A program made the position numbers and the translations under genes. DNA of 64,000 bases from Zootoca vivipara (taxonomy: Eukaryota). A model generated the notes under the pieces. That model saw only the letters and a list, made by a program, of their open reading frames with translations. It did not search any database and was not told the origin of the DNA. The stretch lies in NCBI RefSeq assembly GCF_963506605.1, contig NC_083283.1, positions 6,944,001 through 7,008,000 of the forward strand, read 5' to 3'. Positions 19,272-60,131 of this stretch are shown piece after piece. How positions within the stretch are numbered: position 1 is the first letter of the stretch; every line of letters starts with the position of its first letter.

Positions 19272-19272
19272 A

Positions 19273-31384: not shown

Positions 31385-33450
31385 GTTTGTTTTCTCCTTT
31401 GGCAAAACCTCAGAAAGTGACCTTATACTGAGTCAGACTATTGGTCTATCAAGGTCAGGACTTGTCAAACAGACTCTCTGTGCCACTCACTAGCATTTTC
31501 AAAAGTGGTTTTTCCAACCCTACCTGGAGGTGCTTGGGAATTAACCGTCTTCAAGCACCACAGCTCCAGCCTCTCCTGTAAATGTTTCACGAAACCTTCT
31601 GACTAACGGCATCTAACTAATCAGCAGTCTTCAGAGATGGTGAGTGCAAGAGAACAAGGACACAGCATCTTGCACTGGAATGACAGGTCCTAAGGACTTA
31701 AGAGGAAAAAATGTGGTCCCACTCATGCCCCATGGAGAACATGTAAAATCTTACCAGTCTCACTCAAAGATGCAAACCGGTCCCTCCTGTTCTTCGTCTG
31801 GACTCAATTTGATTCTATGCCTCATAGGACAAGAAGATGCTCTTTAATTGGATATGAAGATAATTATCAGTTCACCAAGGAGGTGGAGACTATTGTCATT
31901 TATGTCCCCAAAGGCTACAGTCATGAAGACCAGGTTTGCAATTGGTTCTAGAGGAAACAGCTCATGTCTCGTGTACTTCTTTATCTGTACCAGACAAATG
32001 GAATAAATGAAGACCTCATCCCCATATTTCTAATCTAGACTGTCTAAGCAAGATAACAACTTCCTGGTCTTTCAATGGCTACAAGCACTTGTCCCGTATG
32101 GGTCTTTTCTTGGGTGGGAGAAGTGTCTATTGGTGGGGAGACATGATTACCAAGGGCGGTAGGTTATGCAAAGTAGGTGGAGAGGGCAAGCATTCAGAGT
32201 CATTTGCTGTGACTCGTGGAAAGGAGCAGGTCCACCAGGTCATTCTTCTCCTCCCCACCCTCATCCCCTACCAATTCCATGGTAACCCCCTGTCTCTCAC
32301 TCTAATTGTCACAACCACCATGTTCGACTTTTTCTGCCTCTCTCTGACCATCACTCCTCTATATCTCTATGGTAAACCCCTGGGCTGAGCCTCAAAACCA
32401 GGTAGGCTCTGCCTCTGAGCTTTCTCATTGGTCAAACTGCATTAACCATTTCCATCACAAGGGATGGGCAAATGCAACATCCGTGTCACATTAATTTCTT
32501 TTCACTTATTTCATAAAATTTTTATACTGCTTGATTTTTTAAAAAAGAAAAAGCACCCCAAAGCAGCTTACAGATGAATAAACAGAAAAATCCAGAAAAA
32601 TCACAACTATACTTTCATACATGAAAAGTTAAAATGCTGAAGCAGATCGAATATATGTTAAGCTTCTTTACATGACATATTGTGCTTACAGTATTACCAT
32701 TTGAACTCCAATTAACATCAAAATCTATTTAATATCTATATGAAGCCATTGGATGTGGTTATTGGGAGTTTTGGAGTACGGTATCAGCAGTGTGATGATG
32801 TTGACACGCAGCTTTCCCTTTCCATAACAGAGGAATCGGGAGAGGCTGTGAAAGCCTTTAACCTTTTGTCTGGATGCAGTAGTGGTCTGGATGAGGGGTA
32901 ATAAACTGTGTTTGAATTCAAGGAAGATGGGAGCTCTTTGAATGGGGGTTCCCCGTGTTTTGGAAATTGGGAAGTTCCCTGTTCTGAGTGGGGTTGCACT
33001 CCCTTTGAAGGAGCGAGTGTGAAGTTTGGGGGTACCTCTAGATAAATCTTTGTCGCTATATGCTCTGTTGTCTTCTGTGTCTCTGAGAGCCTTTCACCAG
33101 CTATGGCAATTCCTGGACGGGGATAGCATGACCCTGCAGACCAGGCATTGGTAACCTCGTGGCTAGATTACTGTGATATGCTTGATGTGGGGCTGCTCCT
33201 GGGTCTGGTTTGGAAGTTCCAGCAGATGCAGAATGCTGCTGCCAGATTGCTGATGGGAGCTTCTCGTCGATTCCTGCAATGCAGGGGCTTGGAGTAGATG
33301 ATCCTTGTGTTCCTTTTCAACTCTACAATTCTATGATTTTATGATGTATTCTACAATACTTGTAAAAACACACAACTCACTTATTGACTCTGGATTCCAT
33401 GTTCTCTCTCCTCGCCCCTCTCTCCCCTAAGAATCTGCCTTAAACTGAGT

Positions 33451-33507
33451 TGGCAGGGGGTTGGACTGGATGGCCCTTGTGGCCTCTTCCAACTCTATGA
33501 TTCTATG
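33451..33507 (+). mobile_element. CR1 3' tail fragment (shared with 42619-42675, absent at 24640)
   Basis: GGGGGTTGGACTGGATGGCCCTTGTGG..CCAACTCTATGATTCTATGA matches the CR1 end at 37360-37418. Confidence 0.8.
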
Positions 33508-33932
33508 AGTCTGATCCTTGGTTCTATCTAGCTCAGTATTGGTCACACTGGCTACCAGACACTCCTAGGGATTTCAAAGTAGGTTGTCTCTGATCCCAGC
33601 AGGAGACTAAAATGGAGACATTTCATATGCAAAGCACATGCTCTGCACTGGGCCATTTCTCCATACGTCTTTTTCCATGCATGGATGTAATCTGCTCCCT
33701 CACTAAGCTTCACCCAACCACCCAGAAGGTAGTTATTTTACAACTTGTTGACCAAGTATGGATTGGGAGTCAACAGATATGGTGATCAGAAGACAACAGG
33801 GACAAAATATCCTGCAACAGAATGGTAGGTACCAAGGTTTTAGAGAGGCAAGGTGGTACCAATCGTTCTTCAAAGAAAAGTGGAAAATCTTACCAATTTC
33901 ATGCCGATCCCTACCATTCTTTGTCTTGGCTT

Positions 33933-34037
33933 GAGGGGGAATCCCAAGATGGCAGAGTATCAACATCCTCCCTTCTGACCCCCTTACTTTACTGGTCTGT
34001 TTTTAAGGTGTTTTTTTTTTTTTACTGCTTTATACCA
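33933..34037 (+). mobile_element. Short retro-insertion with ~19-bp TSD
   Basis: CCATTCTTTG(T/C)CTTGGCTT is duplicated on both sides; the insert is absent from paralogs at 25055 and 43090. Confidence 0.7.
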
Positions 34038-35402
34038 CCCATTCTTTGCCTTGGCTTAATCAGTTTCCCTGCCTCATGTGGCAAGATCCTGTTCTTTTAG
34101 TGGTCATGGGGATAAATACCATCTGGCCTAGGAGGAGGAGACACTTGTCATTTAAAGTTCTATGTCCCCAAATGCTAGTTTGTAATGGGTTGTGAAGGGG
34201 AAACTGAACACATGTCTCATGTGCTTCTTTATCTGTAACGGACAAATAAAACATCTCAGGACCTGTCATGATAACAGATAAAACCATCCTGGCTCTTTAA
34301 CGGCAAAAAACATTTGTCCAGTATTGGACATTATGTAGGGAGGGGGTGAGCACAGAAGGGGAAAATAAGAATTTCCAAGATGTCCTGCTGTTTCTTCCCT
34401 GTGTAAAACCATAGGTGAGAAGTGGAGTGGGATGCAAGAGCAGTTGGTTCTTAAGGATGTTAAAATGAGGTTGTTTTTTTAAATTGTAAAATAGATAATT
34501 TAATAAAAAATTATAAAAAGACTCCTTTATTTCTATCTACAGGTGAATGGGCCATGAGAGGTACAGTTCTTTTCTATCTACATGCCCCTGAAGCTTACCT
34601 TAACTTAAGCTGCCTGTCCTCCTTAAAAAGGGGTTGGGTAAGGCAGACACCCAAGATATATGCCAATACAATGTGTTCTTTTCTAAAATGAAAATTTATT
34701 AAGAAATTTCATAATATGATAAAAAACAAACTATTCTAATAAAAAAGAAAAGAAACAAGGGGAGAGAAAGAGATAGTACAATGCAATGTCCTGTCTCACA
34801 AATGTATCACAACTATTATACCATACAGGGGAAAACTGCCCCCCCAACTTTTACCTGGGAGTTTGTCTCACCCTGGGAGATCTCCCCTTCCCTACATTTC
34901 ACTCAGGGCCCTTCACCAGATGTCCATCAATCTCATCTGCATGCAATTATTTCCTAAACACAGAACTCAGCCATGCAGTTGCAAATAAAACATTTTATGT
35001 GAATTTTACGTGCAATATACAAAGTGATAATAGGTGGTGATGGTGAGTCTTGTGGAAAATTCAATGTATTTTCAAAAATGCTTTTTAAAAAAAGCATTTT
35101 AGGAATGGTTTTTATTTATGTACATGACAACAAGAGAAAGCTGATCTAAACACACACAAAAACAAGGGGGGGGGGAGAAAATACCATGCATCATAATATA
35201 TATGTCAGCAGTTAATACAAGTGCTTGCCTCAATATAGTATCATTCTTTGCTTGTTTATTGAACACAAATATAGACTGATTTTTAAGAAACCAACTCTTC
35301 AGATAGCATTGTACAAGCACAAAATGACAACCATCAAAAATACAAAGCAGGTGGGTTTTATATATTAAAAGATAGGCATCCAAAATTCCTACTAGTCATA
35401 TC

Positions 35403-35479: not shown

Positions 35480-35980
35480 TCTTAAGGACATGCTTAAATC
35501 CCCAAAACAATGGAACTTGCCTGTTCTCACAGAGAATTGAATTCAGAAACTCCTGGAATCATACACTCATAGAATTGTGGAGTTGGAAGGGGCATCCAGG
35601 GGAATCTGATCCAACCTCCTGCAATGCAGGAATCTCAAATAAAACACCACAAGGTTGTTTAATCTTACATGGAATTAAATTCTGCAAATGTGGCCTTTTT
35701 ATCTCCTATGATTGCTGGCAGGGACCTAAGTAGAGTCTCTGAATTAAATCATAAGGTGCAGGTGATCTCACAGGAGTGAAGGCAGTCCTTGAAATACCCT
35801 ATTTCCAGCACTTCCAAGTAGACTTTGGTTTGCTGTAAAAAGTGGTGCACCTGGTACAGTATAGTTAAATGGTGTGGAGCCTCTTTCAGCCAAAGGGCTT
35901 CATTTCTTCGTAGCCAACATTTCAGGGGCTGTATACAATAAGTGGGTGAGGCACAGAAGAAAAATTGAGATAACAAAAGA

Positions 35981-37418
35981 CAAAAGCAAACGGCCTGTGA
36001 GCACCTAGAAAGAAATGCTGTGATCACTAAAAGTCATCATGGGTTTCTGAAAAATAAGTCATGTCAGACCAATCTGATCTCATTTTTTGACAGAATTACA
36101 AGCCTGGTAGATGAAGGGAATGCTGTGGAAGTAGCCTATCTTGATTTCAGCAAGGCCTTTGACAAGGTGCCCCATGATATTCTTGTAAGGAAGTTGGTAA
36201 AATCCGAGCAAGACAATGCTACCATTCAGTGGATTTGTAACTGGCTGACTGACCGAACCCAAAGGGTGCTCATCAATGGCTCCTCCTCATCCTGGAGAGT
36301 AGTGACTAGTGGGGTGCCACAGGGTTCTGTCTTGGGCCCAGTCTTATTCAACATCTTTATCAATGACTTGGATGATGGGCCTGAGGGCATCCTGATCAAG
36401 TTTGCAGATGACACCATTTTGGGAGGGGTGGCTAATACCCCAGAGGACAGGATCACACTTCAAAATGACCTTAACAGATTCGACAACTGGGCCAAAGCAA
36501 ACAAGATGAATTTTAACAAGGAGAAATGTAAAGTACTACACTTGGGCAAAAAAAATGAAAGGCACAAATACAGGATGGGAGACACCTGGCTTGAGAGCAG
36601 TACATGTGAAAAGGATCTAGGAGTCTTGGTAGACCACAAACTTGACATGAGTCAGCAGTGTGATGCAGCAGCTTAAAAAGCCAATGCAATTCTGGGCTGC
36701 ATCAATAGGAGTATAGCATCTAGATCAGGCATCCCCAAACTTCGGCCCTCCAGTTGTTTTGGACTACAATTCCCATCATCACTGACAACTGGTCCTGTTA
36801 GCTAGGGATCATGAGAATTGTAGGCCAAAACATCTGGAGGGCCGCAGTTTGGGGATGTCTGATCTAGATCAAGAGAAGTAATAGTACCACTGTATTCTGC
36901 TCTGGTCAGACCTCACCTGGAGTACTGTGTCCAGTTCTGGGCACCACAGTTCAAGAAGGATACTGACGAGCTGGAACGTGTCCAGAAGAGGGCAACCAAA
37001 ATGGTCAAAGGCCTGGAAACGATGCCTTATGAGGAACAGCTTACGGAGCTGGGTATGTTTAGCCTGGAGAAAAGAAGGTTAAGGGGTGATATGATAGCCA
37101 TGTTCAAATATATAAAAGGATGTCATATAGAAGAGGGTGAAAGGTTGTTTTCTGCTGCTCCAGAGAAGTGGACACGGAGCAATGGATTCAAACTACAAGA
37201 AGATACCACCTAAACATTAGGAAGAACTTCCTGACAGTAAGAGCTGTTCAGCAGTGGAATTTGCTCCCAAGGAGTGTGGTGGAGTCTCCTTCTTTGGAGG
37301 TCTTTAAGCAGAGGCTTGACAGGCATATGTCAAGAATGCTTTGATGGTGTTTCCAAGCAGGGGGTTGGACTGGATGGCCTTGTGGTCTCCTCCAACTCTA
37401 TGATTCTATGATTCTATG
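35981..37418 (+). mobile_element. CR1 LINE, 5'-truncated, RT domain with premature stop and nested MITE
   Basis: HHGFLKNKSCQTNLISFFD, YLDFSKAFDKVPH, SGVPQGSVLGP, KFADDT; (ATTCTATG)n tail; absent from the paralogous site at ~48274. Confidence 0.95.
36726..36861. mobile_element. hAT MITE nested in CR1
   Basis: TIR CAGGCATCCCCAAACT; perfect TSD ATCTAGAT. Confidence 0.93.
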
Positions 37419-37540
37419 ACTCCTCCCATTGTAAAGTAGGATACATGTCAGCTACACAAACCCCAAAATTTTCAAAAAAACGAAACAAAAAAGAACCAGC
37501 CTCTTTTTCTGGGACACATTACACCCATACCAAAAAACTA

Positions 37541-37552
37541 TTATGAAAGGTT
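37541..37552 (-). pseudogene. Remnant (last codons plus stop) of a deleted MRGPR gene
   Basis: The 3' flank at 35560-35980 and 37420-37540 matches the 3' flank of the 48429 gene and ends in TTATGAAAGGTT, identical to the CDS end at 48429-48440. The sequence then jumps to the 3' flank of the next gene type. Confidence 0.75.
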
Positions 37553-37850: not shown

Positions 37851-38837
37851 TTATGAAAGGTTCCTAAGTGGCTTTGAACAAGGAGGATCCATTTCCTGTC
37901 GGTCATTCTCCTCCTCATTCAGAACCCGCTGGAGGATGACCATTAGGCTCTCCCTAGATCGACCTCCCTTCTTCCTCCCAACCAGAAAATAGAGCAAGGG
38001 GTTCACACTGCTATTGAGGGAGGCACACAAGAAGCCATAATGGCCTGGAACATGAATATCCAGGCCTACAATTTCCAGGAAAAGAAGGGCATTGCATGGA
38101 ATAGCAAGCATGAGGAAGAAGAAGAGTTTAAGTAAAATAACTATTAAAAACCTTCCCCGCTTTCGTCGGTGTGATTTTAAACAGACTTTGATGAAAAGGA
38201 TCACAGTTGAAATTGTCATGAGTGGGAGGCAAAGCAGTCCAGTGAACACAAATTGAAAAAATTCTATGTTATATGGTGTGTTGAAATATTTTTGTTCGAG
38301 AATGTAGACGATTAGGCAGAGCAGACAGGAGAGGACCCATAGGAGGGCACACACAGGGGTGGACAAATATGTCGGCCGGATACACCGATACCAAATAGGG
38401 AACAGAACAGACACACATCTGTCAATGCTGATGGCTGTCAGAAGAAGTTGTCCAATGTTGTATGTGAAGAATAAGAGACGAAAAGCAATAGCATAATGAA
38501 ATCTATTTAAATTAAGAGAATTATAGAACTCTAGGCTCAGGAGGAATGCAAAGTCAGCAACAGCCAAATTAAGGATGTAGGTGGTGAATGGTTTCCTCCT
38601 AATGCGGAAACCAAGAAGCCAGATAACAATTCCATTCCCCAAAAATCCCACACAGCAGATAACTAAAATGAAGCCATATATTATAGATATAATAGATATT
38701 TCAAATGGGTTATAGTGGGAATGTCCTTGATCATTATATGAGCTAATATAAGTGTCGTTATACTCATTATATGTCACAGCGTCCGCAGCAGATTGCAAAG
38801 TCCCATTGATATGTCTTTCCATGCTGAATGACTGCAT
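37851..38837 (-). CDS. MAS-related GPCR (MRGPR/MAS1-like), 328 aa, recent-paralog subgroup
   Basis: Intact ORF with family motifs. The second ATG (MERHING) is an alternative start. Confidence 0.95.
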   Translation of the reverse strand: MQSFSMERHINGTLQSAADAVTYNEYNDTYISSYNDQGHSHYNPFEISIISIIYGFILVICCVGFLGNGIVIWLLGFRIRRKPFTTYILNLAVADFAFLLSLEFYNSLNLNRFHYAIAFRLLFFTYNIGQLLLTAISIDRCVSVLFPIWYRCIRPTYLSTPVCALLWVLSCLLCLIVYILEQKYFNTPYNIEFFQFVFTGLLCLPLMTISTVILFIKVCLKSHRRKRGRFLIVILLKLFFFLMLAIPCNALLFLEIVGLDIHVPGHYGFLCASLNSSVNPLLYFLVGRKKGGRSRESLMVILQRVLNEEENDRQEMDPPCSKPLRNLS

Positions 38838-41800
38838 GTGGAATCCTTCTCTCCTCTTCTGCAGCAGAGGTTTCCTCTAGGAAATGGAAAGTATCACAAA
38901 TAAGATTGACTCAGCTGGAATTCTGTGCAAAACCGAGAATGGTGAGACCCAGGAGCCCATTGAACCACACATACACCCAAAACTTTTGTCTATCAAGCCA
39001 AAAGTCATATATGTGGAATTCTCTGCAATATTACTGAATCCCCCACATGGGCCACACCCCTCTGGATTACTTCTCATAAAGCTGTTTTTGTTCTTTAGTG
39101 AATTAGTTTACGAGGAAATTGGGATTCACTGGTGGCAAGAGAAGAGGTCGGCACAGCATTCCCCGGTCTCCTTGCCCTATTGTCCAATTTGTAATGTCTC
39201 TCCAAAACTGGGATTCAATCATATTTCTTTTACTATGACCCGGCTCAACATTCCTGCCTAGGAAGAGATATTAGTAAGGATGAAGGAGATGGACGGAGAC
39301 AAAATGAGAAGGACTCCACCTTGTTTAGGGAAAGTTTGTTAGAAAGTTCTATAGCAGTGAATTTCACTTACCTACTGCATATGCATCCAGGTGGGACTAT
39401 CTTCCAATGCTAAAAGAGCAGTCTTGGAATGAATGAGCGTGTGGAGGAAGTTCTGAAAGAGAGGTCAGGCAGTAATGTAACATGTTTTCGTATTATAACT
39501 CAGTGTCCTTTTTGTTGCTCAGTTCCAAGGATTCTCCCCCAAAATAGAGCAAGCTTTCTGATATATCTATATTGGCTCCCCCCAATCAAGAAGGCTGTTT
39601 TTGATGCATGGGAAGCAAACTCGTTGGTGGGGGGGGGCAGGCGTTTACCCAAGTAGTAGTGGCACCTTTAAGAAGCAATAATACTTGCTTGATAAACAAA
39701 TGAACAGATTCTCCTGGTGGTGGTGATGACAGAAGGTTTACCTTACTCTCCCCTCCAAAGGCCCCAGCCATTTTCCTAGTGCAAGGAAACTGAGCATTAG
39801 CACTTGGGCTGTTGCTTTAGCTGTAGTTGGGAGCTGGTGGCATCACACATTCCTGGCTTTCAGCCTCGCCCTAATCCAGACAGCTGTTTACATCTACAAA
39901 CATAATGTATGTAGCCTCATACACAACATGCTGGGAAGACTTAGCAGTCCTCTTTGCCTGCCTGGTTCTCTTCTTCTGTAGTCCTGAGGTTGATGGGGAA
40001 ATATCCAAGAGCTTGCAAGAAACGCAAGTACCTAATGTGGAGACCTTTGATGATGGGGTAGGGATGTAATTAGCCTTCACTTCACTTCCTTATGACCAAG
40101 AGTAAGGAAAGTGCTCTACTGGCATTCTGAGTGTTGACTCAATGAGTGACTTATAGAAAGGAGAGAAACAAACTCTTCAGTGGGATAATTATTGTTCTGT
40201 AGCTTCACGCTAAGGGTTTAGTCACTCACAGAACAGAGAAAGGAATTCAAAAATTAAAGAGAGTGTATATGTTTATATATTAAGCGGAATCCCATCATAG
40301 TGTTTGCTTCTAGGAACATGGATATCTGCTCCCTTCGTATTGCCTTAATAATATCAACTTTCCCAAGACTTCACTGATCAATCATAGGTGAATTCCCTGC
40401 GCTGGACTTTGTTCACTTGATATGACCCAGTCTATTCTGCGCACCTGTTAAAATACATTAATTGCATTGTGTCTGGATACAAGGTTTGTTCTCTCCCTTG
40501 GCAGAACCTCAGGAAGTGACGTTATACTGAGTCAGACTATTGGTCTATCAAGAGCAGGATTTGTCAAACAGACTCTCAGTGCCACTCTCTAGCATTTTAA
40601 AAAAGTGGTCTTTCCACCCCTACCTGGAGGTGCTTGGGAATTAACCTTCTGCAAACACCGCTGCTCCAGCCTCTCCTGTAAATGTTTCACCCAACCTTGT
40701 GACTAACTGCAGATCAGCAGTCTTCAGAGATGGTGACTGCAAAAGAACAAGGACACAGCATCTTGAAGTGGTCCTAATGACTTAAGAGAAAAAAATGTGG
40801 CCCCACTCATGCCCCATGGAGAAAATAAAATCTTACCAGTCTCACTCAAAGATGCAAACTGGTCCCTCCTGTTCTTCCTCAGGGCTTCATTTGATTCTAT
40901 GCCTCATAGGACAAAAGGATGCTCTTTAATTGAATATGAAGATAATTATCAGTTCACCAAGGAGGAGGAGACTATTGTCATTTATGTCCCCAAAGGCTAC
41001 AGTCATGAAGACCAGGTTTGCAATTGGTTCTAGAGGAAACAGCTCATGTCTCGTGTACTTCTTTATCTGTACCAGACAAATGGAATAAATCAAGACCTCA
41101 TCCCCACATTTCTAATCTAGACTGTCTAAGCAAGATAACAACTTCCTGGGCTTTTAACGGCCAAAAGCATTTGTCCCCTATATGTATTTTATTTGGTGGG
41201 GGAGTTGAGTATTGGTGATGAGACATGATTACCTAGGGTGGGAGGGGAGGTTGCTTTTTAGTAGCACAACTAGGTGGAGGGGGGCAAGGAGTCAGAACCA
41301 TCCGTTGTGACTCATGGAAGGGAGCAGTTCAACCAGGTCATCCTTCATGACCCCCTTTGTTCGAGGCAATTCCATGGTAACCAATGTAACATTTATTTCA
41401 TTCATTTATTTCAAAAAAATTAAACACTGCTTGATTGTCAAAAAACAAAACAAAAACAAAAACAAAAAACACCCCAAAGCAGCTTACAAAAGAATAAACA
41501 GAAAAATCAAGAAAAATCACAACCATTCTTAAAAACATGCAAAAGTTAAAATACTGAAGCAGATTGAATATATGTTAAGTTTCTTTACATGATATATTGT
41601 GCTTACAGTAATATCATTTGAACTCCAATTAACTTTAATATATATTTAATAGCTATATGAAGCCATTAGATGTGGTCATTAGGAGTTCTGGAGCATGGTA
41701 CCAGCAGTGCGATGATGTTGACACACAGCTTTCTTGGGTGGGAGAGGTGTCTATCAGTGGGGAGACATGATTACCAAGGGCAGTAGGTTATGCAAACTAG

Positions 41801-43833
41801 GTGGAGGGGGCAAGCATTCAGAGTCATTTGCTGTCACTCATGGGACCAGGTAGGCTCTGCCTCTGAGCTTTCTCATTGGTCAATCTGCATTAACCATTTC
41901 CATCACAAGGAATAGGCAAAGGCCACATCCGTGTCACATTAATTTCTTTTTATTTATTTCATTAAATTTATATACGCTGCTTTCCCTTTCCATAACATAG
42001 GAATCTGGAGAGGCTGTGAAAGCTTTTAACCTTTTGTCTGGATGCAGTAGTGGTCTGGATGAGGGGTAATAAACTGTGTTTGAATTCAAGGAAGATGGGA
42101 GCTCTTTGAATGGGGGTTCCCCGTGTTTTGGAAATTGGGAAGTTCCCTGTTCTGAGTGGGGTTGCACTCCCTTTGAAGGAGCGAGTGTGAAGTTTGGGGG
42201 TACTTCTAGATAAATCTTTGTCACTAGATGCTCAGGTGTCTTCTGTGCATCTGAGAGCCTTTGATCAGCTATGGCAATTCCTGGACGGGGATAGCCTGAC
42301 CCTGCAGACCAGGCATTGGTAACCTCGTGGCTAGATTACTGTGATATGCTTGATGTGGGGCTGCTCTTGGGTCTGGTTTGGAAGTTCCAGCAGATGCAGA
42401 ATGCTGCTGCCAGATTGCTGATGGGAGATTCTCATCGATTCCTGCATTGCAGGGGCTTGGAGTAGATGATCCTCGTGTTCCTTTACAACTCTAAAATTCT
42501 ATGATTTTATGATGTATTCTACAATACTTGGAAAAACACACCATGCACTTATTGACTCTGGGTCCCATGTTCTCTTTCCTCGCCCTCTCTCCCCTAAGAA
42601 TCTCCCTTAAAATGAATTGGAAGGGGGTTGGACTGGATGGCCCTTGTGGTCTCTTCCAACTCTATGATTCTATGAGTCTGATCCTTGGTTCCATCTAGCT
42701 CAGTATTGGTCATACTGGCTACCAGACACTGCTAGGGATTTCAAAGAAGGGTGTCTCTGATCCCAGCAGGAGACTAAAATGGGGACATTCCATTTGCAAA
42801 GCAGATGCTCTTCACTAAGTTACTTGGCCATTTCTCCATACATCTTTTTCCATGGATGGATGTAATCTGCTCCCTCACTAAGCTTCACCCAACCACCCAG
42901 AAGGTAGTTATTTTACAACCTGCTGACCAAGTATGGATTGGGAGTCAACAGATATGGTGTTCAGAAGACAACAGGGACAAAGTATCCTGCAACAGAATGG
43001 GAGGTACTAAGGCATTAGAAAGGAAATGGGGCACCAATCATTTCTCAAAGAAAAATGGAAAAACCGTACCAATCTCATGCTGATCCCACCCATTCTTTAT
43101 TTTGGCTTAATCTGTTTCCCTGCCTCAGGCGGCAAGATCATGTTCTTTTAGTGGCCATGAGGATAAATACCATCTGGCCCAGGAGGAGGAGACGATTGTC
43201 ATTTAAAGATCTATGTCCCCAAATTCTAGTTTGTAATGGGTTGTGAAGGGGAAACCGAACACATGTTTCATGTGTTTCTTTATCTGTAACAGCCAAGTAA
43301 AATATCTCAGGACCTGTCATGATAACAGATAACAGATGAAACCATCCTGGCTGTTTAACGGCAAAAAACATTTGCCCAATATTGGACGTTTTGTAGGGAG
43401 GAGGTGAGCACAGAAGGGGAAAATAGGATTTTCCGAAATGTCTTGCTGTTTCTTCCCTGTGTAAAATGATAGGTGAGAAGTGGATTGGGATGCAAGAGCA
43501 GTTGGTTCTTAAGGATGTTAAAATGAGGTTTTTTAAATTGTAAAGCAGATAATTTAATAAAAATTATAAAAAAAGAGTCCTTTATTTCCATCTACAGGTG
43601 AATGGACAATGAGAGTGACAGTTCTTTTCTATCTACATGCCCCTGAAGCCCACCTTAACTTAAGCTGGCTGTCCTCCTTAAAAAGAGATTGGGTAAGGCA
43701 GACACTCAAGATATATGCCAATACAATGCATTCTTTTTTTAAAAATGAAAATTTATTAAGAAATTTCATAATACAATAAAAAACAAACTAGTCTAATCAA
43801 AAAAAAAAAAAGGAGAGAGAAAGAGATAGTACA

Positions 43834-44400
43834 GGGGTGCTCAGAGGGGAGAGGAGGGGGTGGAAGGAAACCCAGACACAAAAATGGAACCTTGGAAGTG
43901 CTGTGCCCTGCGGGTTCCTCTTGTGGCAGGAGGGGGCCTGTGGGAGGGCAGCATGGAAAAGGAGGAGGATTAAGTCAATACTATAAGAATAGGATTTTGA
44001 ATTGGATTAGAAAACCCGCCATAATTAATTAAAGAAGTTAGGAAAACCAGGAGGAAGAGTATCGAGGAAGTCACAATTATAATGTTAAGATAATAAGAAT
44101 TGGGAATTTATATTTTTTCCCTATTGTTGTGTGTGTTTGTTCAAGTATGCTTATGAAAGAGCTGGGGGGAAACCAACCCTCAGAGCTCCTCCATCCCTGT
44201 CCTTTCAGTGGCAGGGAGGGGATAAGGGGGGAGGAAGGAGGGGGGAGGCCAAACCCAACTTATAATGGACCCCTTTGATTCTCAACGCCCCCGGGTCCTA
44301 CTGGTGGCAGAAGTGGACTGGTGGGTGGTGGGAAATTGAAGGGACAGTGTTATATTCTATGTTTTGTTTGTATAAAACTAATAAAAATTATTATAAAAAA
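43834..44400 (+). mobile_element. L1-like G-rich 3' fragment
   Basis: Ends with AATAAA and an A-rich tail; 18-bp TSD AGAGAAAGAGATAGTACA; empty site at ~34763; same family as 55424-56171. Confidence 0.8.
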
Positions 44401-45038
44401 AGAGAAAGAGATAGTACAATGCAATGTCCTGCCTTACAAATGTATCACAACTTTTATACCATACAGAAAGAGATGACCCCTCACCCCCAGCTTTTACCTT
44501 GGAGTTTGTCTCACCCTGGGAGATCTCCCCTTCCCTGCATTTCACTCAGGGTCCTTTACTAGCTGTCCATCACCCTCATATGCATGCAATTATTTCCTTA
44601 ACCCAGGACTCAGCCATGCAATTGAAAAAAAAAACAAAAAAAAAACATTCCTAGTTAGTTTTAAGTGCAATATAGAAAGTAACAATACACGGCGATGGTG
44701 AGCCTTATGGAAAATTCAATGTATTTTCAAAAAGCGTTTTAAGGATGGTTTTTATTTATGTGTAGAGTACAGGACAACAACAAGAGAAAGCTGATCTAAA
44801 CACACACAAAAACAGGGCAAAAAAAGAAAATACCATGCATCGTAATGTATATATCAGCAGTTAATACAAGTGCTTGCCTCAATATGGTATCATTCTTTGC
44901 TTGTTTATTGAACACAAATATAGACTGATTTTTAAGAAACCAACTCTTCAGATAGCACTGTACAAGTACAAAATGACAACCATCAAAAATACAAAACAGG
45001 TTGGTTTTTTATATTAAAAGATAGGCACCCAAAATTCC

Positions 45039-45041
<3 letters not shown>

Positions 45042-45096
<55 letters not shown>
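45042..45096. repeat. (AT)n(AG)n microsatellite
   Basis: Direct reading. Confidence 0.95.
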
Positions 45097-45102
<6 letters not shown>

Positions 45103-47845
45103 ACTTCAAAAAATTCTAATGGATAAAAGAGTGCTTTTAAATTATAATGTTACCAAACAAGAAGTGGAAGAGGCAATAAAGCAAATGACAATAGGAAAAG
45201 CACCGGGTCCAGATGGCTTAACGGCAAAGTATTATAAGATCCTAAAAGACTGGTTAGTTGAACCATTCACTGATTTGTGCAACAAGATTTTAGGAGGGGG
45301 CAAGGCACCAGAGACTTGGTAAGAGGCATATATAACATTGATATTAAAACCAGACACAGACAGATTGCATATGACGAATTACCGACCGATATCATTATTA
45401 AATGTGGATTACAAAATTTTTGCTAATATTTTGGCATAAAGATTAAAGAGATTATTAAGGGATTTGATCCATAAAGATCAGGCCAGGTTTTTGCCCAGCA
45501 GACACTTGAAGGACAATATTAGAAACATTGTGGATATTTTAGAAATGCTGGAGGAAAAGAAGAACATGAGTGCAGCTTTAATTTTTGTGGATGCCGAAAA
45601 AGCTTTGGATAACATTTCTTGGAGATTCATGATACGTAATTTAGAGAAAATGGAAGTTGGGAGGGAGTTTATAAATGGTTTGTCAGCTATATATGTAGAC
45701 CAAAAAGCAAAGATTATTGTTAATAGGGTGATATCAGAAGATATTCGAATAGAAAAAGGAACTAGACAAGGATGCCCACTCTCCCCTTTGTTATTCACTA
45801 CAGTTCTGGAGGTTTTACTAGACAGGATCAGGAAGGAGAAAGAGGTCTCGGGGGTCAAAGTGGGAAAGAAACAATATAAGTTGAAAGCTTTTGCAGATGA
45901 TCTAGTTTTGACAGTTCAGGAACCGGACACTAGTATTCCTAATGTATTAGAGATTATACAGGAGTTTGGACAGCTGGCAGGCTTCAAATTAAATAAAATG
46001 AAAACCAAAGTTTTGAGTAAAAATTTAACACCGGAAGAGATAAGTCAGCTACAAGAGACCACGGGATTGACATTTGTGAAAAAGGTTAAATATCTAGGGG
46101 TAAATGTGTCAGACAAAAATATACAGTTATTTAAAAACAATTATGAGAAGTTGTGGAATGAGGTGAAGAGAGACTTGGAAACTTGGTCAAGATTGAAATT
46201 GTCATTGTTAGGGCGCATTTCAGTTATAAAAATGAATGTATTGTCAAAAATGTTGTTTATGTTTCAAGCATTGCCAATTGTAGAGAAACAGGCATGTTTT
46301 AAAGAATGGCAAAAAACCTTATCAAGATTTATCTGGCAGGGGAAGAAGCCTAGAATTAGATATAAGTTATTGACTGATGTTAAAGAAAGAGGGGGATTCT
46401 TCCTGCTCTTTCTTTAACATTTTTAACATCTTTAACTCTTAAAGTTATATTTTGAGGCAGCGGCCTTTTGCTGGATGAAAGAATGGTTCACACTTGATAA
46501 TACAGATGTTTTAGATCTGGAAGGGTATGACAATGCATTTGGGTGGCACGCTTATTTATGGTATAACAAAGTTAAAGTACATAATCGATTTAAATGTCAT
46601 ATTATAAGAAAGTCATTGTTTAATGTTTGGACTAGATATAAAGATCTTCTAGAAAGAAAAACACCTAGATGGTTATCACCACTGGAAGCAAAGGTTAATA
46701 AAAAAATTAATATGCAAGATAAATGGATAAGATATAAAGATATGTTGATAGAAGAAAATGATCAGGTGAAGTTAAAGCCTTATGAGCAGATGAAAGATCA
46801 ATTGAGTGGTTGGTTGCAGTATTGTCAGATTAATGAGTTATTCAAAATGGATAAAAAAATTGGTTTTCAAATTGAAAAATCAAAGTTGGAAACAGAATTA
46901 ATTGAACCAAAAGTTAAAAATCTTGCAAGAATGTATAAGTTACTGTTGGAATGGCATACGAAAGATGAGCCAACAAAATCAATGATGATAGATTGGGCAA
47001 AGGATATAGGACATAATATAATGTTGGAAGATTGGGAAAGGTTATGGAATTGTAACATGAATTTTACTGCTTCTAGTTTGTTAAAAGAAAATTTGTATAA
47101 GATGATGTATAGATGATATCTTATGCCAGTGAAACTGGCAAGGATATATCATAATAAAGATAATAAATGTTGGAAATGTAAAGAAACAGAAGGGACCTTT
47201 TACCAAATGTGGTGGACTTGTCCCCGAGTAAAGAGCTTCTGGGACAAGATTTATAATGAGTTGAAGAAAGTGTTTAAAAACACGTTTGTTAAAAACCCGG
47301 AGGCCTTTTTACTTGGAACTACAAGGAAAGAATTGCCAAAGAAAGATATTACTTTTTTTCTGTATGCCACAGCAGCAGCTAGAATTGTATTAGCAAGGAA
47401 TTGGAGAGTTGAAGAATTATCTACAGTGGACAACTGGCAGATGAAGCTGATAGATTTTATGGAGCTGTCTGAATTAACTGCGAGAGTCCGAGATCGGGGA
47501 GAGGAGACGGTGGAAGAAGATTGGAAGAAATTTAAGATATATAAGATTAAGAATGGACAATAAGGGAAGGGGTTATACAAAGATGCTGAAGAAGTGCAAA
47601 GACTTTGTAAGACGGATTTAAGTGTTAAATGTAAATTAATTAGTGAATACATTCTTTATAAGTAAATTAGAAAAAGAATTGGATTAAGAAGTAGAGAGTG
47701 CAGTAATACATATAATTAGAAACGTGGAAAGGGGGGGAAGGAGGAAGTCGACAGTGTTAGATTTATATTGGGTAAAATGATAAAGAATTGTTTTCTTGTT
47801 TTTGTTTTGTATTTTTGTCTTGTTTTTAATTTTGTAAGTTTTCCC
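45097..47845 (+). mobile_element. L1-clade LINE, 5'-truncated ORF2 (RT plus C-terminal zinc knuckle), inactivated by stops
   Basis: GKAPGPDG, YRPISLLNVDYKIFA, VDAEKALD, KGTRQGCPLSPLLF, AFADDL, KYLGVN, CWKC..GT..MWWTC; several in-frame stops. Confidence 0.93.
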
Positions 47846-48428
47846 CCTGGAATCATACACTCATAAAATTGTGGAGTTGGAAGGCGCATCCAGGGGCATC
47901 TGATCCAACCTCCTGCAATGTAGGAATCTCAACTAAAGCACCACAAGGTTGTTTAATCTTACATGGAATTAACTTCTGCAAATGTGGCCTTTTTATCTCC
48001 TATGATTGCTGGCAGCACCTAAGTAGAGTCTCTGAATTAAATCATAAGGTGCAGGTGATCTCACAGGAGTGAAGGCAGTCCTTGAAATACCCTATTTCCA
48101 GCACTTCCAAGTAGACTTTGGTTTGCTGTAAAAAGTGGTGCACCTGGTATAGTATAGTTAAATGGTGTGGAGCCTCTTTCAGCCAAAGGGCTTCATTTCT
48201 TCGTAGCCAACATTTCAGGGGCTGTATACAATAAGTGGGTGAGGCACAGAAGAAAAATTGAGATAACAAAAGACATGACCCCTCCCTTTCTTTTGGGAGA
48301 AGCAAAAAGGTGACTACTCCCTTTCTAAAGTAGGATACATTTCAGCTACACAAACCCCAAAATTTTTAAAAACTACAACAACCCAGCCTGTTTTTCTGGG
48401 ACACATTACAGCCAGACCAAAAAAACTC

Positions 48429-49415
48429 TTATGAAAGGTTCCTAAGTGGGTTGGAACAAGGAGGGTCCATTTCCTGTCTGTCATTCTCCTCCTCATTCAA
48501 AACCCGCTGGAGGATGACCATTAGGCTCTCCCGAGATCGACCTCCCTTCTTCCTCCCAACCAGAAAATAGAGGAAGGGGTTCACACTGCTGTTGAGCGAG
48601 GCACACAAAGCGGCATAATGGAATCGAACGGGAATTTTCAGGCCAACAATTAAACTATCGAGAAGAATGGCATTGAGTGGAAAAGCAAGCATGAGGAAGA
48701 AGAAGAGTGTGAGTAAAATAACTATTAAAAGCCTTCCCTGCTTTCGTGGGTGTGATTTAAAACAGACTTTGATGAAAAGGATCACAGTTGAAATTGTCAT
48801 GAGTGGGAGGCAAACCAGTCCAGTAATGAGAAATTGGAAAAATTCTCTGGGGATACGAAGAAAGATGGTATTTGATCTAAGGAAAGATGTTTCTTTGAGA
48901 ATGTAGAGGACTATGGAGAGCAGACAGGAGAGGACCCATATGAGGGCACACACAGTGGTGGACAAGTGTGTTGGCCGGACACACCGATGCCAAATAGGGA
49001 AGAGGACAGACACACATCTGTCAATGCTGATGGCTGTCAGGAGAAGTTGTCCAGTGTTGTATGTGAAGGCTAAGAGATAAACAGCAATTCTATAAGGAAA
49101 AGAATCAGTAAACTCAATAGAATAAAATAACTCTAGGCTCAGGAGGAATGCAAAGTCAGCAACAGACAAATTAAGGATGTAGGGGGTAAACGGTTTCCTC
49201 CTAATGCGGAAACCAAGAAGCCAGATGACAATTCCATTCCCCAAAAATCCCATACAACAGATGACTAAAATGAAGCCATATATTATAGATCCTTCAAATG
49301 GGTTGTATTGGGAATATCCTTGGTCATTATATGAGCTATTATAAGTTTCATCATACTTGTTATCTGTCACAGCATCAGCAGCAGATTGCAAAGTCCCATT
49401 GATATGTCTTTCCAT
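48429..49415 (-). CDS. MAS-related GPCR (MRGPR/MAS1-like), 328 aa, recent-paralog subgroup
   Basis: Intact ORF MERHING...PLRNLS* with family motifs. Confidence 0.95.
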   Translation of the reverse strand: MERHINGTLQSAADAVTDNKYDETYNSSYNDQGYSQYNPFEGSIIYGFILVICCMGFLGNGIVIWLLGFRIRRKPFTPYILNLSVADFAFLLSLELFYSIEFTDSFPYRIAVYLLAFTYNTGQLLLTAISIDRCVSVLFPIWHRCVRPTHLSTTVCALIWVLSCLLSIVLYILKETSFLRSNTIFLRIPREFFQFLITGLVCLPLMTISTVILFIKVCFKSHPRKQGRLLIVILLTLFFFLMLAFPLNAILLDSLIVGLKIPVRFHYAALCASLNSSVNPFLYFLVGRKKGGRSRESLMVILQRVLNEEENDRQEMDPPCSNPLRNLS

Positions 49416-52400
49416 GCTGAATGACTGTATGTGGAAATCTTGTCTCCGCTTCTGGAGCAGAAGTTTCCTCTAGGAAATAGAAAGTAGCACAAATAAGATT
49501 GACTCAACAGGAATTCTGCGCAAAACAGAGAATGGTGAGACCCAGGAGCCCATTGAACCACACATACACTCACAACTTTTGTCTATCAAGCCAAAAGTCA
49601 AATAGGTGTAATTTTCTGCAATATTATTGAATCCTCCACATGGGCCACACCCCTCTGGATTTCTTCTCATAAAGCTGTTTTTGTTCTTTAATGAGTTAGT
49701 TTACCAGGAAACTGAGATTCACTGGTGGCAAGAGAAGAGGTCGGCACAGCATTCCCTGGTCCTCTTGCCCTATTGTCCAATTTGTAAAGTCTCTCCAAAA
49801 TTGGGATTCAATCATATTTCTTTTACTATGACCAGGCTCAACATTCATGCCTAGGAAGAGATATCAGTAAGGATGAAGGAGATGGACAGAGACAGAGTGA
49901 GAAGGACTCCACCTTGTTTAGGGAAAGTTTGTTACAAAGTTAAGTTCACTTACCTACTGCATATGAATCCAGGTAGGACTATCTTCCATTGCTAAAAGAG
50001 CAGGCTAGGAATGAATGAGGGTGTGCAGGAATTTCTGAAAGAGAGATGAAGCAGTAATGTAACGTGGGTTTTTTTTTTATTACATATAACTCAGTGTTCT
50101 TTTTGTTGTTCAGTTCCTAGGATTCTCACCAAAATAGAACAAGCTTTCTGATATGTCTATATTGGCTTCCCCCTAACCAAGGAGGATGTGTTTGATGCAT
50201 GGGAAGCAAACATGTGGGGGAGAGCAGGTGTTTACCCACGTAGTAGTGGCACCTTTAGGAAGCAACCATGCTTGATTGATAAACAAATGAGCAGATTCTC
50301 CTGGTGGTGGTGATGACAGAATGTTTACCTTACTCTCCCCTCCAAATGCCCCAGCCATTTTCCTAGTGCAAGGAAACTGAGCATTAGCACTTGGGCTGTT
50401 GCTTTAGCTGTAGTTGAGAGCTGGTGGCATCACACTTCCCTGACTTTCAGCCTGGCCCTAATCCAGACAGCTGTTTACATCTACTTACACAATGTATGTA
50501 GTCTCATACACAACATGCTGTGAAGACTTAGCAGTCCTCTTTGCCTACCAGGTTTTCCTCTTCTGTAGTCCTGAGTTTGATGGGGACATTTCCAAGTGCT
50601 TGCAAGAAACCCAAGTAGCTAATGTGGAGACCTCTGATGATGGGGTAGGGATGTAATTAGCCTTCACTTCATTTCCTTACGACCAAGAGTAAGGAAAGTG
50701 CTCTTCTGGCATTCTGAGTGTTGACTCAATGAGTGACTTATAGAAAGGGGAGAAACGAACTCTTCAGTGGGATGATTATGGTTCTGTAGCTTCATTCTAA
50801 GCTTCAGTCACTCACAGAACAGAGAAAGGGATTAAAGAATGAAAGAGAGTATATATGTTTATATATTAAGCGGAATCCCATCATTGTGTTTGCTTCTAGG
50901 AACATGGATATCTGCTCCCTTCGCATTGCCTTAATAATATCAACTTTCCCAAGACTTCACTGCTCAATCATAGGTGAATTCCCTGCCCTGGACTTGGTTC
51001 ACTTGATATGACCCAGTCTATTCTGCGTACCTGTTAAAATACATTAATCTCATTGTGTCTGGACACAAGGTTTGTTCTCTCTCTTGGCAAAACCTCAGGA
51101 AGTGACCTTATACTGAGTCAGACTATTGGTCTATCATGAGCAGGATTTGTCAAACAGACTCTCAGTGCCACTCTCTAGCATTTTAAAAAAAGTGGTCTTT
51201 CCACCCCTACCTGGAGGTGCTTGGGAATTAACCTTCTGCAAACACCGCTGCTCCAGCCTCTCCTGTAAATGTTTCACCCAACCTTCTGACTAACTGCAGA
51301 TCAGCAGTCTTCAGAGATGGTGACTGCAAAAGAACAAGGACACAGCATCTTGAAGTGGTCCTAATGACTTAAGAGAAAAAAATGTGGCCCCACTCATGCC
51401 CCATGGAAAAAATCTTAAATCTTACCAGTCTCTCTCAAAGATGCAAACCAGTCCCTCCTGTTCTTTGTCTGGAGTCAATTTGATTCTATGCCTCATAGGA
51501 CAAGAGGATGCTCTTAAATTGGATATGAAGATAATTATCAGTTCACCAAGGAGGTGGAGACTATTGTCATTTATGTCCCAAAAGGCTACAGTCATGAAGA
51601 CCAGGTTTGTAATTGGTTCTGGAGGAAGCAGCTCATGTCTCACGTACTTCTTTATCTGTACCAGACAAATGGAGTAAATCAAGACCTCATCCCCACATTT
51701 CTAATCTAGGCTGTCTAAGGAAGATAACAACTTCCTGGCCTTTTAACGGCCAAAAGCAGTTGTCCCCTATATGTCTTTTATTTGGTGGGGGAGTTGAGTA
51801 TTGTTGGGGAGACATGATTACCTAGGGTGGGAGGGGAGGTTGCTCTTGAGTAGGTTAACTAGGTGGAGGGGGCAAGGAGTCAGAGCCATTGGCTGTAACT
51901 CGTGGAAGGGAGCAGTTCCACCAGGTCATCCGTCATGCCCCCCTTCATTGGAGGCAATTCCATGGTAACCAATGTAACATTTATTTCTTTTCATTTATTT
52001 CATAAAATCTATACACTCCTTGATTGTCAAACAAAAACAAAAAAACACCCCAAATCAGCTTACAAACAAATAAACAGAAAAATCAAGAAAAATCACAACC
52101 ATACTTTAAAACATGCAAAAGTTAAAATACTGAAACAGATTGAACATATGTTAAGCTTCTTTACATGATATATTGTGCTTACAGTATTATCATTTGAACT
52201 CCGATTACCTTTAATATCTATTTAATATCTATATGAAGCCATTAGATGTGGTCATTAGGAGTTCTGGAGCACGGCATCAGCAATGTGATGATGTTGACAC
52301 ACAGCTTTCCCTTTCCATAACAGAGGAATCAGGAGAGGCTGTGAAAGCTTTGAACCAGTGTCTGGATGCAGTAGTGGTCTGGATGAGGGCTGATCAACTG

Positions 52401-52489
52401 TTTTTGAATTCGAGGAAGATGGGAGCTCTTTGGATGGGGGTCCCCATGTTTTGGAAATTGGGAAGTTCCCTGTTCTGAGTGGGGTTGTA

Positions 52490-52892
52490 TAGTGATACCT
52501 CAGGGTAAGTACTTAATTGGTTCCGGAAGTCCCTACTTAACCTGAAGCGTACTTAACCTGAAGCAAAATTTCCCCTTGAAAGTAATGGAAAGTGGATTAA
52601 TCCATTCCAGACGATGAAAAACACCCCCTAAAACAGCAATTTAACATGAATTTTACTGTCTAATGGGACCATTGATCAATAAAATGAAGGCAATAATCAA
52701 TGTACAGTGATACCTCAGGTTAAGTACTTAATTGGTTCCGGAAGTCCATACTTAACCTGAAGCATACTAAACCTGAAGCGAACTTTCCCATTGAACGTAA
52801 TGGAAAGTAGATTAATCCATTCCAGACGGGTCTGCGGAGTACTTAACTTTAAAGTGCTCAACCTGAAGCGTACTTAACCCAAGGTAGGACAG
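52490..52892. mobile_element. Tigger/mariner-type MITE with a duplicated left part
   Basis: (C/T)AGTGATACCTCAGG..AAGTACTTAATTGGTTCCGGAAG occurs at 52490 and 52705; flanked by TA; empty site at ~30229. Confidence 0.82.
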
Positions 52893-54089
52893 TACTCCCT
52901 TTGAAAGAGCAAGTATGAAGTTTGGGGGTATTTCTGGATACATCTCTGTCACTAGGTGCTCAGATGTCCTCTGTGTCCCCCATTCGCAACCCTGGATCAT
53001 ATTTTGGTTGACACTTGCGCCAGGAGCTTTGTAGATGATGAGATGTGAAAACAATGCTTGGACTTAAAATGAGCAATGTTTATTTAACACTGTTAAAGGT
53101 AACAGTTACTATATATAGGAATTCCCAACAGCACAAGCTCCTTTACATCTGAGTTATTGCGGTGTTGTACCTATCACTTCAAATTGTTGGGCAAGTTCCA
53201 TTGACTCAGGGCCACAGAGTAGTTAATTCTCTGCTCATAGCCATTCCTTGCAGGTACATTAACACTGCAATCCAAACCCAAGATCTGTCAAGATTAAGGA
53301 GTTTAAAATTTCATCTCATTCATTTTATTTTTTTCTCATTTTTCCATACAAAAATGCATGTCCAAAGTGGCTTTCAACCACAAAAAACAGGGGTGCATTT
53401 CACACAAACACTACAAAAACAATTTCATAATAACAAAATAACAAAAACATAGCAATAATTTCACATTAAGATAGCAAAACAAAAACATAGTAACATAAAA
53501 TAAACCACATTTCAATAGTATAACAAGGTCACTTAAACAGCATGTAGCATCCAAGAGCAAAAACAGCAAGGGAGCTTCCCGGTAACTCTCTCATTCAAGG
53601 GGATAGTTTTTACAACCATGTGACTAAGGTTGGATCAGCAATCTTCAGATTTGGTGAGCAGAAGACAAGGGCAGCATGCTGAGATGGCAGGTGCTAAGGA
53701 TTTGGGGGGGGGGGATTGTGACACAAGTTGTGTCCCAAAGAAGATTACACAACATTTCTATTCACAGTCCAAGTTGTACAGATTGTTCCACCTGATCTTT
53801 GCCTTGACTAGTTCAGCTTGTGCAATATAGGTACACAGTGTGGAGCATTTTTTTTAGCCGCAGGGCTTCATATCTTCATGGCCAATATTTCAGGGGCTAT
53901 ATACTGTAGGTGGGTGGGCCAAAGAAGAAAAATTGGGAGAACCAAAAAGGTGACTACTCCCTTTCTAAAGTAGGATACATTTCAGCTGCACAAACCCCAA
54001 AATTTTCAACACAACCCAAGCCTCTTTTTCTGCTGAGCATGAGTCATCAATGCAGTCCAAGGACACATTACAGTCAGACCAAAAAACTC

Positions 54090-55109
54090 TTATGAAAGGT
54101 TCCTAAGTGGGTTGGAACAAGGAGGGTCCATTTCCTGTCTGTCATTCTCCTCCTCATTCAAAACCCGCTGGAGGATGACCATTAGGCTCTCCCTAGATCG
54201 ACCTCCCTTCTTCCTCCCCACCAGAAAATAGAGGAAGGGGTTCACACTGCTGTTGAGCGAGGCACACAAGAAGCCATAATGGAGTTGAATGGGAATATTC
54301 AGGCCAATAAATCCACCAAGAAGAAAGGCATTGAGTGGGAAAGCAAGCATGAGGAAGAAGAGGAGTGTAAGTAAAATAACTATTAAAAGCCTTCCCCGCT
54401 TTCGCGGGTGTGATTTAAAACAGACTTTGATGAAAAGGATCACAGTTGAAATTGTCATGAGTGGGAGGCAAAGCAGTCCAGTCAAGAGAAATTGAAAATA
54501 TGCTATGAGGATATAAAGAAAGGTGTTATCTGATATACGGAAATATGTTTCTTGGAGAATGTAGACGATTAGGCAGAGCAGACAGGAGAGGACCCATATG
54601 AGGGCACACACAGTGGTGGACAAATGTGTCGGCCGGGCACACCGATGCCAGATAGGGAAGAGGACAGACACACATCTGTCAATGCTGATGGCTGTCAGAA
54701 GAAGTTGCCCAGTGTTGTATGTGGAGGCAAAGAGACAAAGAACAATCCTATAAAATTGTAGCAATCCTACAAATTCAGTATACTCAATAGAATAAAAGAA
54801 CTCTAGGCTCAGGAGGAATGCAAAGTCTGCAACAGCCAAATTAAGGATGTAGGTGGTGAATGGTTTCCTCCTAATGTGGAAACCAAGAAGCCAGATGACA
54901 ATTCCATTCCCCAAAAATCCCACACAGCAGATAACTAAAATGAAGCCATATATTATAGATATAATAGATATTTCAAATGGGTTATAGTGGGAATGTCCTT
55001 GATCATTATATGAGCTATTATAAGTGCCGTTATACTCCTTATATGTCACAGCATCCGCAGCAGATTGCAAAGTCCCATTGATATGTCTTTCCATGCTGAA
55101 TGACTGCAT
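54090..55109 (-). CDS. MAS-related GPCR (MRGPR/MAS1-like), 339 aa, recent-paralog subgroup
   Basis: First ATG at 55109 (MQSFSMERHING); the track's 55139 start is non-ATG. All family motifs present. Confidence 0.95.
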   Translation of the reverse strand: MQSFSMERHINGTLQSAADAVTYKEYNGTYNSSYNDQGHSHYNPFEISIISIIYGFILVICCVGFLGNGIVIWLLGFHIRRKPFTTYILNLAVADFAFLLSLEFFYSIEYTEFVGLLQFYRIVLCLFASTYNTGQLLLTAISIDRCVSVLFPIWHRCARPTHLSTTVCALIWVLSCLLCLIVYILQETYFRISDNTFLYILIAYFQFLLTGLLCLPLMTISTVILFIKVCFKSHPRKRGRLLIVILLTLLFFLMLAFPLNAFLLGGFIGLNIPIQLHYGFLCASLNSSVNPFLYFLVGRKKGGRSRESLMVILQRVLNEEENDRQEMDPPCSNPLRNLS

Positions 55110-55423
55110 GCGGAAATCTTGTCTCCTCTTCTGGAGCAAAGGTTTCCTCTAGGAAATGGAAAGTATCACAAATAAGATTGACTCAGCTGGTATTCTGTGC
55201 AAAACCCAGAATGGTGAGACCCAGGAGCCCATTGAACCACACATACACCCACAACGTTTGTCTGTCGAGCCAAAAGTCATATATGTGCAATTCTCTGCAG
55301 CATTACTGAATCCCCCACATGGGCCACAACCCTCTGGATTACTTCTCTTAAAGCTGTTTTTGTTCTTTAGTGAGTTAGTTTATGAGGAAATTGAGATTCA
55401 TTGGTGGCAAGAGAAGAGGTCAG

Positions 55424-60047: not shown

Positions 60048-60131
60048 GTCTAGGAGAATTTTACCCTACCCCTGAAATGACATCAAAAAGTAGCCACAGG
60101 AAATCACTTTAAAATAAGCAAAGAGCAGAGC

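Follow-up and report, generated by a model that had tools for sequence, protein, structure and literature searches.

The window analysed here is a 64-kb stretch of DNA from the lacertid lizard Zootoca vivipara (contig NC_083283.1, positions 6,944,001 to 7,008,000), in which seven complete and one partial seven-transmembrane (7TM) open reading frames lie, all on the minus strand. Four of them, labelled A (26629), B (37851), C (48429) and D (54090), are intact single-exon frames at the positions where a first-pass annotation had placed them, and their sequences identify them as MAS/MRGPR-family G protein-coupled receptors (GPCRs) belonging to a tandem cluster. A genome search returned 94 matches, 35 of which fall within C8:6.76-7.03 Mb, and a further paralog, E, is located at C8:7020693-7021721, about 13 kb past the window end, and represents database protein P0006 (labelled Zootoca vivipara). 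Taken together, the receptors are probably tandem segmental duplicates whose flanks became mosaic by unequal crossover and gene conversion and whose extracellular loops (ECLs) were diversified mainly by selected point mutation.

The Pfam 7tm_1 domain scores 52.9-64.1 bits in A-D (cut-off 30.5), and the top PDB sequences for D are MAS1 (E=1e-53) and MRGPRD (9e-46), with MRGPRE and MRGPRX also among the closest solved relatives. According to passages of PMC10286997 and PMC13187490, MAS/MRGPR receptors feature [D/E]RC at 3.49-3.51, no canonical disulfide between transmembrane helix (TM) 3 and ECL2, a replaced W6.48 and a retained NPxxY. These hallmarks were found in A-E, which carry IDRC at the DRC motif and D/Y/Y/Y/F, so not Cys, at residue 3.25; reading the alignment by hand, W6.48 is replaced by A and NPxxY is kept as NP[FL]LY. 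The MRGPRX-type C4.64-C5.32 disulfide is absent, with Q at 4.64 of D by hand count and no ECL2 cysteine pair in B-E. Analogy with the structures of Mas1 and MRGPRX predicts a shallow extracellular ligand pocket lined by the variable segments, and the AlphaFold model (predicted local distance difference test, pLDDT, 47; predicted template modelling score, pTM, 0.28) was too poor for reading the pocket.

The closest database proteins are lacertid models named 'MRGPRH-like' or 'Mas-like' with 72-81% identity. In mammals, MAS1/MRGPRH is linked to IGF2R. This linkage was not found for the present receptors, which cluster on C8, with CIMR repeats at C3:67.69-67.74 Mb. These IGF2R-type repeats adjoin a different receptor cluster that is 26-33% identical to the C8 cluster; this second MAS-related cluster, with seven matches at C3:67.59-67.65 Mb, is probably the MAS1/MRGPRH-syntenic locus. 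Since the IGF2R-type repeats sit at the C3 cluster, the MAS1/MRGPRH names on the C8-cluster proteins are probably best-hit labels.

Mosaic flanks of the duplicated units

The genes sit in homologous duplicated multi-kb units, and over about 4 kb the 128 sites informative for B, C, D and E switch their grouping in blocks. The pattern BC|DE is followed by 53/61 sites of the distal upstream block, BD|CE by 6/8 sites of the mid-upstream block, BC|DE again by 7/11 sites of the proximal upstream block, and BD|CE by 25/28 sites of the 3' flank. The pairwise homoplasy index (PHI; own implementation, as were the runs tests below) gave p=2e-4 on the units, and in approximately unbiased (AU) tests of 15 five-taxon trees two were kept upstream and one in the 3' flank, none being common to both. 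No one tree thus holds across the duplicated unit, which passes the check set in the first-pass annotation against a single consistent tree, but the signal lies mostly in non-coding sequence. Germline unequal crossover together with gene conversion likely produced these mosaic flanks of tandem MAS-related GPCR units.

D and E are identical over 194 bp across the ATG, running 52 bp into the coding sequence (CDS); the two genes differ at 2/149 bases before the ATG versus 48/658 just upstream, and the identical stretch is likely a recent conversion tract. In addition, the 3' flank of B is A-like in its outer part (8/148 differences). The orphan C/E-type 3' flank and the CDS-less unit between A and B (Table 1) attest to gene loss by deletion.

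It is most improbable that mis-assembly or cross-paralog polishing created this patchwork, considering that the longest exact match between aligned paralogs is only the 194 bp above and that most mosaic blocks are 93-98% alike, not identical. In a read check covering D's stretch only (53700-55420), runs X1 and X2 both returned ECL1, ECL2 and ECL3 of D with 0 differences, and run X7, which comes from a third study, did so for ECL1 and ECL3; D-specific N-terminal letters are joined in one X2 contig to the 9-bp duplication described below, and the D=E tract has a depth of 58.9 in X2 versus about 30 for single-copy pieces. On the other side, X1 or X2 is possibly from the assembled sample itself, and no contig phases the whole gene, the longest listed matched piece being 268 bp. 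Furthermore, at 55139 and 55191 both X7 contigs, at low depth, carry the A/B/C letter instead of the D/E letter, which may mean that the D=E tract is of recent origin or polymorphic. The roughly 6% of RNA run X21 that was covered gave 0 matching reads, too small a share to count as a test. Long-range mis-assembly is accordingly graded as unlikely.

Table 1. Features of the receptor units in the window
Feature	Position	Strand	Remark
Gene A, MAS-related GPCR CDS, short-type ECL2	26629..27609	-	
Gene B, MAS-related GPCR CDS, long-type ECL2 with private 18-bp deletion near 38268; longest loop branch of B-E	37851..38837	-	
Gene C, MAS-related GPCR CDS; ATA replaces the upstream ATG at 49428-49430	48429..49415	-	
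Gene D, MAS-related GPCR CDS; long ECL2, private 12-bp insertion in ECL1	54090..55109	-	
B=D identical stretch, 120 bp, containing the 9-bp duplication	B 38626..38745, D 54898-55017	-	
Imperfect 9-bp tandem duplication	D 54954..54971, B 38682-38699	-	D copy also recovered in X2 contig
D=E identical stretch, 194 bp, covering predicted splice acceptor and ATG	55058..55251	-	~2x depth in run X2
Distal upstream region of B, groups with C; switch to B+D between 40367 and 40170	40367..41382	-	
Mid-upstream region of B, 96-98% identical to D (57277-56762)	39727..40242	-	
3' flank of C, ~97-98% identical to E 3' flank and to orphan flank 35552-35982	47846..48275	-	
Orphan C/E-type 3' flank and last codons of lost CDS, joined directly to B's own 3' flank	35552..37552	-	
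Reverse transcriptase-bearing insertion splitting the orphan C/E-type 3' flank	35983-37416		
Unit remnant: upstream and far-3' flank homology, no receptor CDS	30230..34780	-	
Predicted 5' intron of B, GT at 39371, AG at 38877; matching sites in A, C, D	38877..39371	-	Motif search, inferred

Several further elements accompany the units. A second receptor type (61249-62238; C8:7026565-7027578) is duplicated together with D/E, with flanking blocks 94-98% identical (59366-60127, 61030-63382). The 3' flank of E contains an insertion at C8:7014488-7020075 with 619-bp direct repeats that are 99.7% identical and a 1332-codon open frame, which by eye we take to resemble a young copia-like long terminal repeat (LTR) retrotransposon. 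A D-specific insertion of about 750 bp (55422-56171) in the predicted 5' intron, flanked by direct repeats of about 15 bp and 72% similar to 43834-44406, is likely a truncated long interspersed nuclear element (LINE). RVT_1 matches occur in retroelement fragments at 45440-47563, 35969-36676 and 17905-19320, and another fragment at 60118-60747 has a GIY-YIG match below the cut-off. The receptor at 13886-14857, with DGC for DRC, KPLIH for NPxxY and a score below the Pfam cut-off, may be decaying. A search for shorter proteins gave seven matches, with no lacertid fragments among them.

Loop ancestry in B and D and probable loop selection in B-E

It had been proposed from the sequence that gene conversion or unequal crossover shuffles pocket modules between paralogs. 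Spelled out, B and D would on this view be chimeras, in which a shared N-terminus was converted onto C-like loops in D and A-like loops in B, and pocket diversity would come mainly from such shuffling. The N-terminal SHYNPFEISIISIIYGF is indeed common to B and D, including an imperfect 9-bp tandem duplication inside 120 identical bases, and this duplication is absent from C and likewise from A, E and all lacertid homologs aligned. The conflicting genealogies of N-terminus and loops were not borne out, however, as the opposing characters fail once polarised. The MQSFS start is present in B and D but ancestral, since the upstream ATG occurs in A, B, D, E and most homologs, and the ATA found among A-E in C alone is a loss in C. 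Similarly, C and D do have the long ECL2 and FYSIE.T of ECL1 in common, yet this sharing is ancestral because the long ECL2 also occurs in E, Lacerta P0004 and five Podarcis proteins and P0004 carries FY.IEFTD. The MQSFS start, the long ECL2 and FYSIE.T were consequently ruled out as signs of exchange.

The short ECL2 of B, noted earlier to have the length of A's, equals that of A in length only. Its alignment scores are 91.5 with D (one 18-nt gap), 76.5 with E, 73.5 with C and 51 with A; an A-derived ECL2 in B was ruled out, B being best aligned to D and worst to A. Aligned in this way, the short ECL2 of B is of the long type and has lost 18 bp in B alone. In the quartet of B, D, C and P0004, 12 of the 17 informative columns support B+D (three of them duplication gap columns), 5 support B+C and 0 support C+D. 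Segment trees with outgroups did not reject a B+D clade in any of five protein segments, while constrained trees for ECL2 rejected C+D (p=0.017) and A+B (p=0.043), both uncorrected values from 12 constraints x 5 segments. Of the 22 rows, 5 were excluded from these constrained tests, namely a truncated Lacerta model and four Podarcis models that lack a contig record. The constrained tests replaced cross-segment AU tests of free trees, which were not used as evidence, each segment's own tree being among the candidates.

Divergence between B and D at fourfold sites is 2/37 before ECL1 and 6/85 after it. A B-D breakpoint at ECL1 was considered and rejected: a pooled neutral test was significant (84/1551 vs 46/373), but the excess lies in the 3' flank and the CDS fourfold sites show no step. 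A 3-bp (one-codon) deletion in ECL3, ambiguous in its placement, also seems common to B and D, and the B loops match no paralog, with a nearest identity of 0.41-0.48. Ancestry shared across the whole CDS of B and D is favoured by these characters, not proven, and together with one private deletion it better explains the B/D swap proposed earlier. The chimera explanation has in its favour the 120-bp B=D identity in a variable region, a GENECONV-like B-D run of 22 sites (p=0.005 corrected; 0/150 on each of three trees in single-tree simulations with rate heterogeneity only), the A-like outer 3' flank of B and the occurrence of module swaps in Podarcis. Against these stand the long-type sequence of B's ECL2, the lack of any C+D-derived residue against P0004, the equal fourfold divergence 5' and 3' of ECL1, the apparent shared ECL3 deletion and the unmatched loops of B; for the loops it is already largely refuted, and as a whole it is quite unlikely.

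Point substitution accounts better for the loops. A codon model on B-E gave omega (the nonsynonymous to synonymous rate ratio) of 3.8-3.9 in the three loop regions (72 codons; likelihood ratio test p about 1e-5), compared with 0.8-0.9 for the N-terminus and 0.46-0.50 for the core, and these results hold on all three four-taxon trees, B having the longest loop branch. The loop and pocket diversity in the window is therefore likely, as judged from these sequences, to derive mainly from point substitution under positive selection and not from reshuffled modules. Passages of PMC3221663 describe positive selection on human MRGX at 2.56, 2.60 and 3.29, and position 3.29 is E/F/V/L/V in A-E. In the proposed course of events, the B loops would have diverged fast after the common ancestry of B and D, losing 18 bp of ECL2. 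Separately, an X7 contig matching D ECL2 (54503-54540) shows five differences (A203P, L198I, T196I, S193P and one silent), two of which match paralog states (C/E, B), and the X7 contigs of ECL1 and ECL3 show none; the ECL2 variant may be an allele or an unassembled paralog.

Possible exchange tracts within coding sequences

In the four CDSs on which the chimera proposal was built, no significant recombination was detected (18 informative sites; PHI p=0.20; runs test p=0.27). For the five-gene CDS of A-E, PHI gave p=0.007, or 0.038 without the loops, and the runs test was significant in one of five quartets (ABDE, p=0.008). Constrained trees allowed A+E in the N-terminus and rejected it in ECL2 (p=0.0006), ECL3 and core. 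E looks the most composite of the genes, with NSTH found otherwise in A alone, the ancestral AYFQF in common with D, and both RFHYAAL and the 3' flank in common with C, and the C/E-specific ECL3-TM7 sites adjoin a 97-98% identical 3' flank. On this evidence E would be the best chimera candidate in the genome, with an A-like N-terminus, a D/B-like ECL2 and a C-like ECL3 and 3' flank. Its C-like RFHYAAL segment changes position 7.39 (hand numbering), a pocket-floor residue in Mas1 according to passages of PMC13187490.

Clearer cases come from annotated protein models of Podarcis muralis, compared at the protein level only. On one contig, P0007 and P0011 share ECL1 (79%) and ECL2 (97%), P0007 shares ECL3 with P0010 (86%), P0011 shares its N-terminus and ECL3 with P0009, and in P0013 a P0009-like ECL1 is combined with ECL2 and ECL3 of the short type. 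In constrained trees, Pm7+Pm11 was the best pairing for ECL1 and ECL2 and was rejected for ECL3 (p=4e-5) and for the N-terminus, with the reverse for Pm9+Pm11. PHI for six same-contig paralogs gave p=1e-4, and the runs tests gave p=0.0004 and 0.0008 in two of three quartets. From these alignments, the Podarcis paralogs show a clean reciprocal ECL1-ECL2 loop swap. A Podarcis clade fits ECL1 and core, but ECL2 rejects it (p=4e-6), the short and long types of this loop being spread across genera. Core homogenisation within a genus was not supported: the core fits the Podarcis clade, yet leaves a long-ECL2 clade unrejected (p=0.21). Part of the modular look is an ascertainment effect, since a breakpoint can be placed only between variable sites, which cluster in the loops. 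As side cases, P0018 joins a 61249-type N-terminal third to the remainder of P0008 and P0002 has a doubled N-terminal part, being either gene-model artefacts or real chimeras.

Exchange between paralogs as a mechanism is thus supported by the flanks, the five-gene CDS and the Podarcis swaps, although the evidence put forward originally fails to show it. Under the favoured explanation of mosaic duplicates with point-mutated loops, exchange tracts would sometimes cross coding sequence, with E as best candidate and Podarcis as the clearer case, and loop recombination would genuinely add new pocket combinations, though in second place to point mutation.

Besides the unphased contigs, several points weigh against this explanation. 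The exchange signal within the window CDSs is modest, and 4/15 topologies pass AU in every one of the three CDS thirds; C is paired with D in one of the DNA topologies that survive (AE|B|CD), hence B+D is only favoured. In single-tree simulations with branch lengths free per segment, PHI p<=0.01 was reached in 5-13% of 150 runs and a B-D run of at least 22 in 27-35% of 150. The 120-bp B=D stretch arose in 0/150 on each of three single-tree simulations with proportional branch lengths and may itself be a recent conversion, and the loop alignments are uncertain and could inflate omega. The fit of 4/15 trees to all CDS thirds, the non-negligible rates at which the heterotachy simulations reproduce the CDS statistics and the non-significant four-gene tests would suit birth-and-death duplication alone, accompanied by loop substitution in lineage-specific bursts, in which CDSs never exchanged and only flanks were rearranged. 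Nevertheless, the D=E tract reaches into the CDS by 52 bp, the C/E-specific ECL3-TM7 sites border the 97-98% identical 3' flank, Podarcis proteins give reciprocal AU rejections, and the heterotachy null, being fitted to the data, absorbs true conversion; a history free of coding exchange is very unlikely.

Meaning and known systems

The cluster likely reflects ordinary gene-family evolution, conversion and selection in a tandem GPCR cluster being a known, textbook process. As a small natural panel of MAS-related receptors, in which near-identical cores carry hypervariable and partly recombined loops, it should help in asking which segment determines ligand specificity in a family that is mostly orphan, and it bears on the pressure behind the reptile MRGPR expansion (parasites, host-defence peptides or venoms, as speculation). 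For lacertid cluster genes it is likewise a caution that neither one-to-one orthology nor an 'MRGPRH-like' label can be relied on. Literature searches, covering open-access text only and missing subscription journals, found no report of MRGPR mosaicism in lacertids.

Like the lizard genes, the mammalian MAS1/MRGPR family (MAS1, MRGPRD, MRGPRE, MRGPRX1-4) has the DRC motif and NPxxY and lacks C3.25 and W6.48. The lizard genes differ from MRGPRX in having no Cys at 4.64, hence no MRGPRX disulfide, and from mammalian MAS1 in lying off the IGF2R-linked locus. An expansion of a locally duplicated sauropsid MRG group ('MRGPR1' or the reptile cluster near MRGPRH) was already noted in PMC6504862; this is the same kind of local reptile expansion, and the passages of that paper covered here contain no mosaic or selection analysis.

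In diversification of the major histocompatibility complex (MHC) type, conversion generates useful variation, as passages of PMC3966226 describe. The lizard cluster, known here from genome sequence, would resemble it in this respect. A fully MHC-style scheme, in which near-identical TM segments act as exchange points, N-terminus and ECL cassettes under strong positive selection (some older than the genera) are recombined over and over into new pockets and selection holds chimeric haplotypes segregating in the wild, is a tentative and rather unlikely extension. In the chicken FFAR2 (GPR43) tandem GPCR cluster, pervasive gene conversion goes together with positive selection close to the ligand groove, according to passages of PMC4453067. 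Conversion is described there as homogenising, whereas the lizard paralogs are more divergent (74-83% protein identity) and the Podarcis tracts recombine divergent loops.

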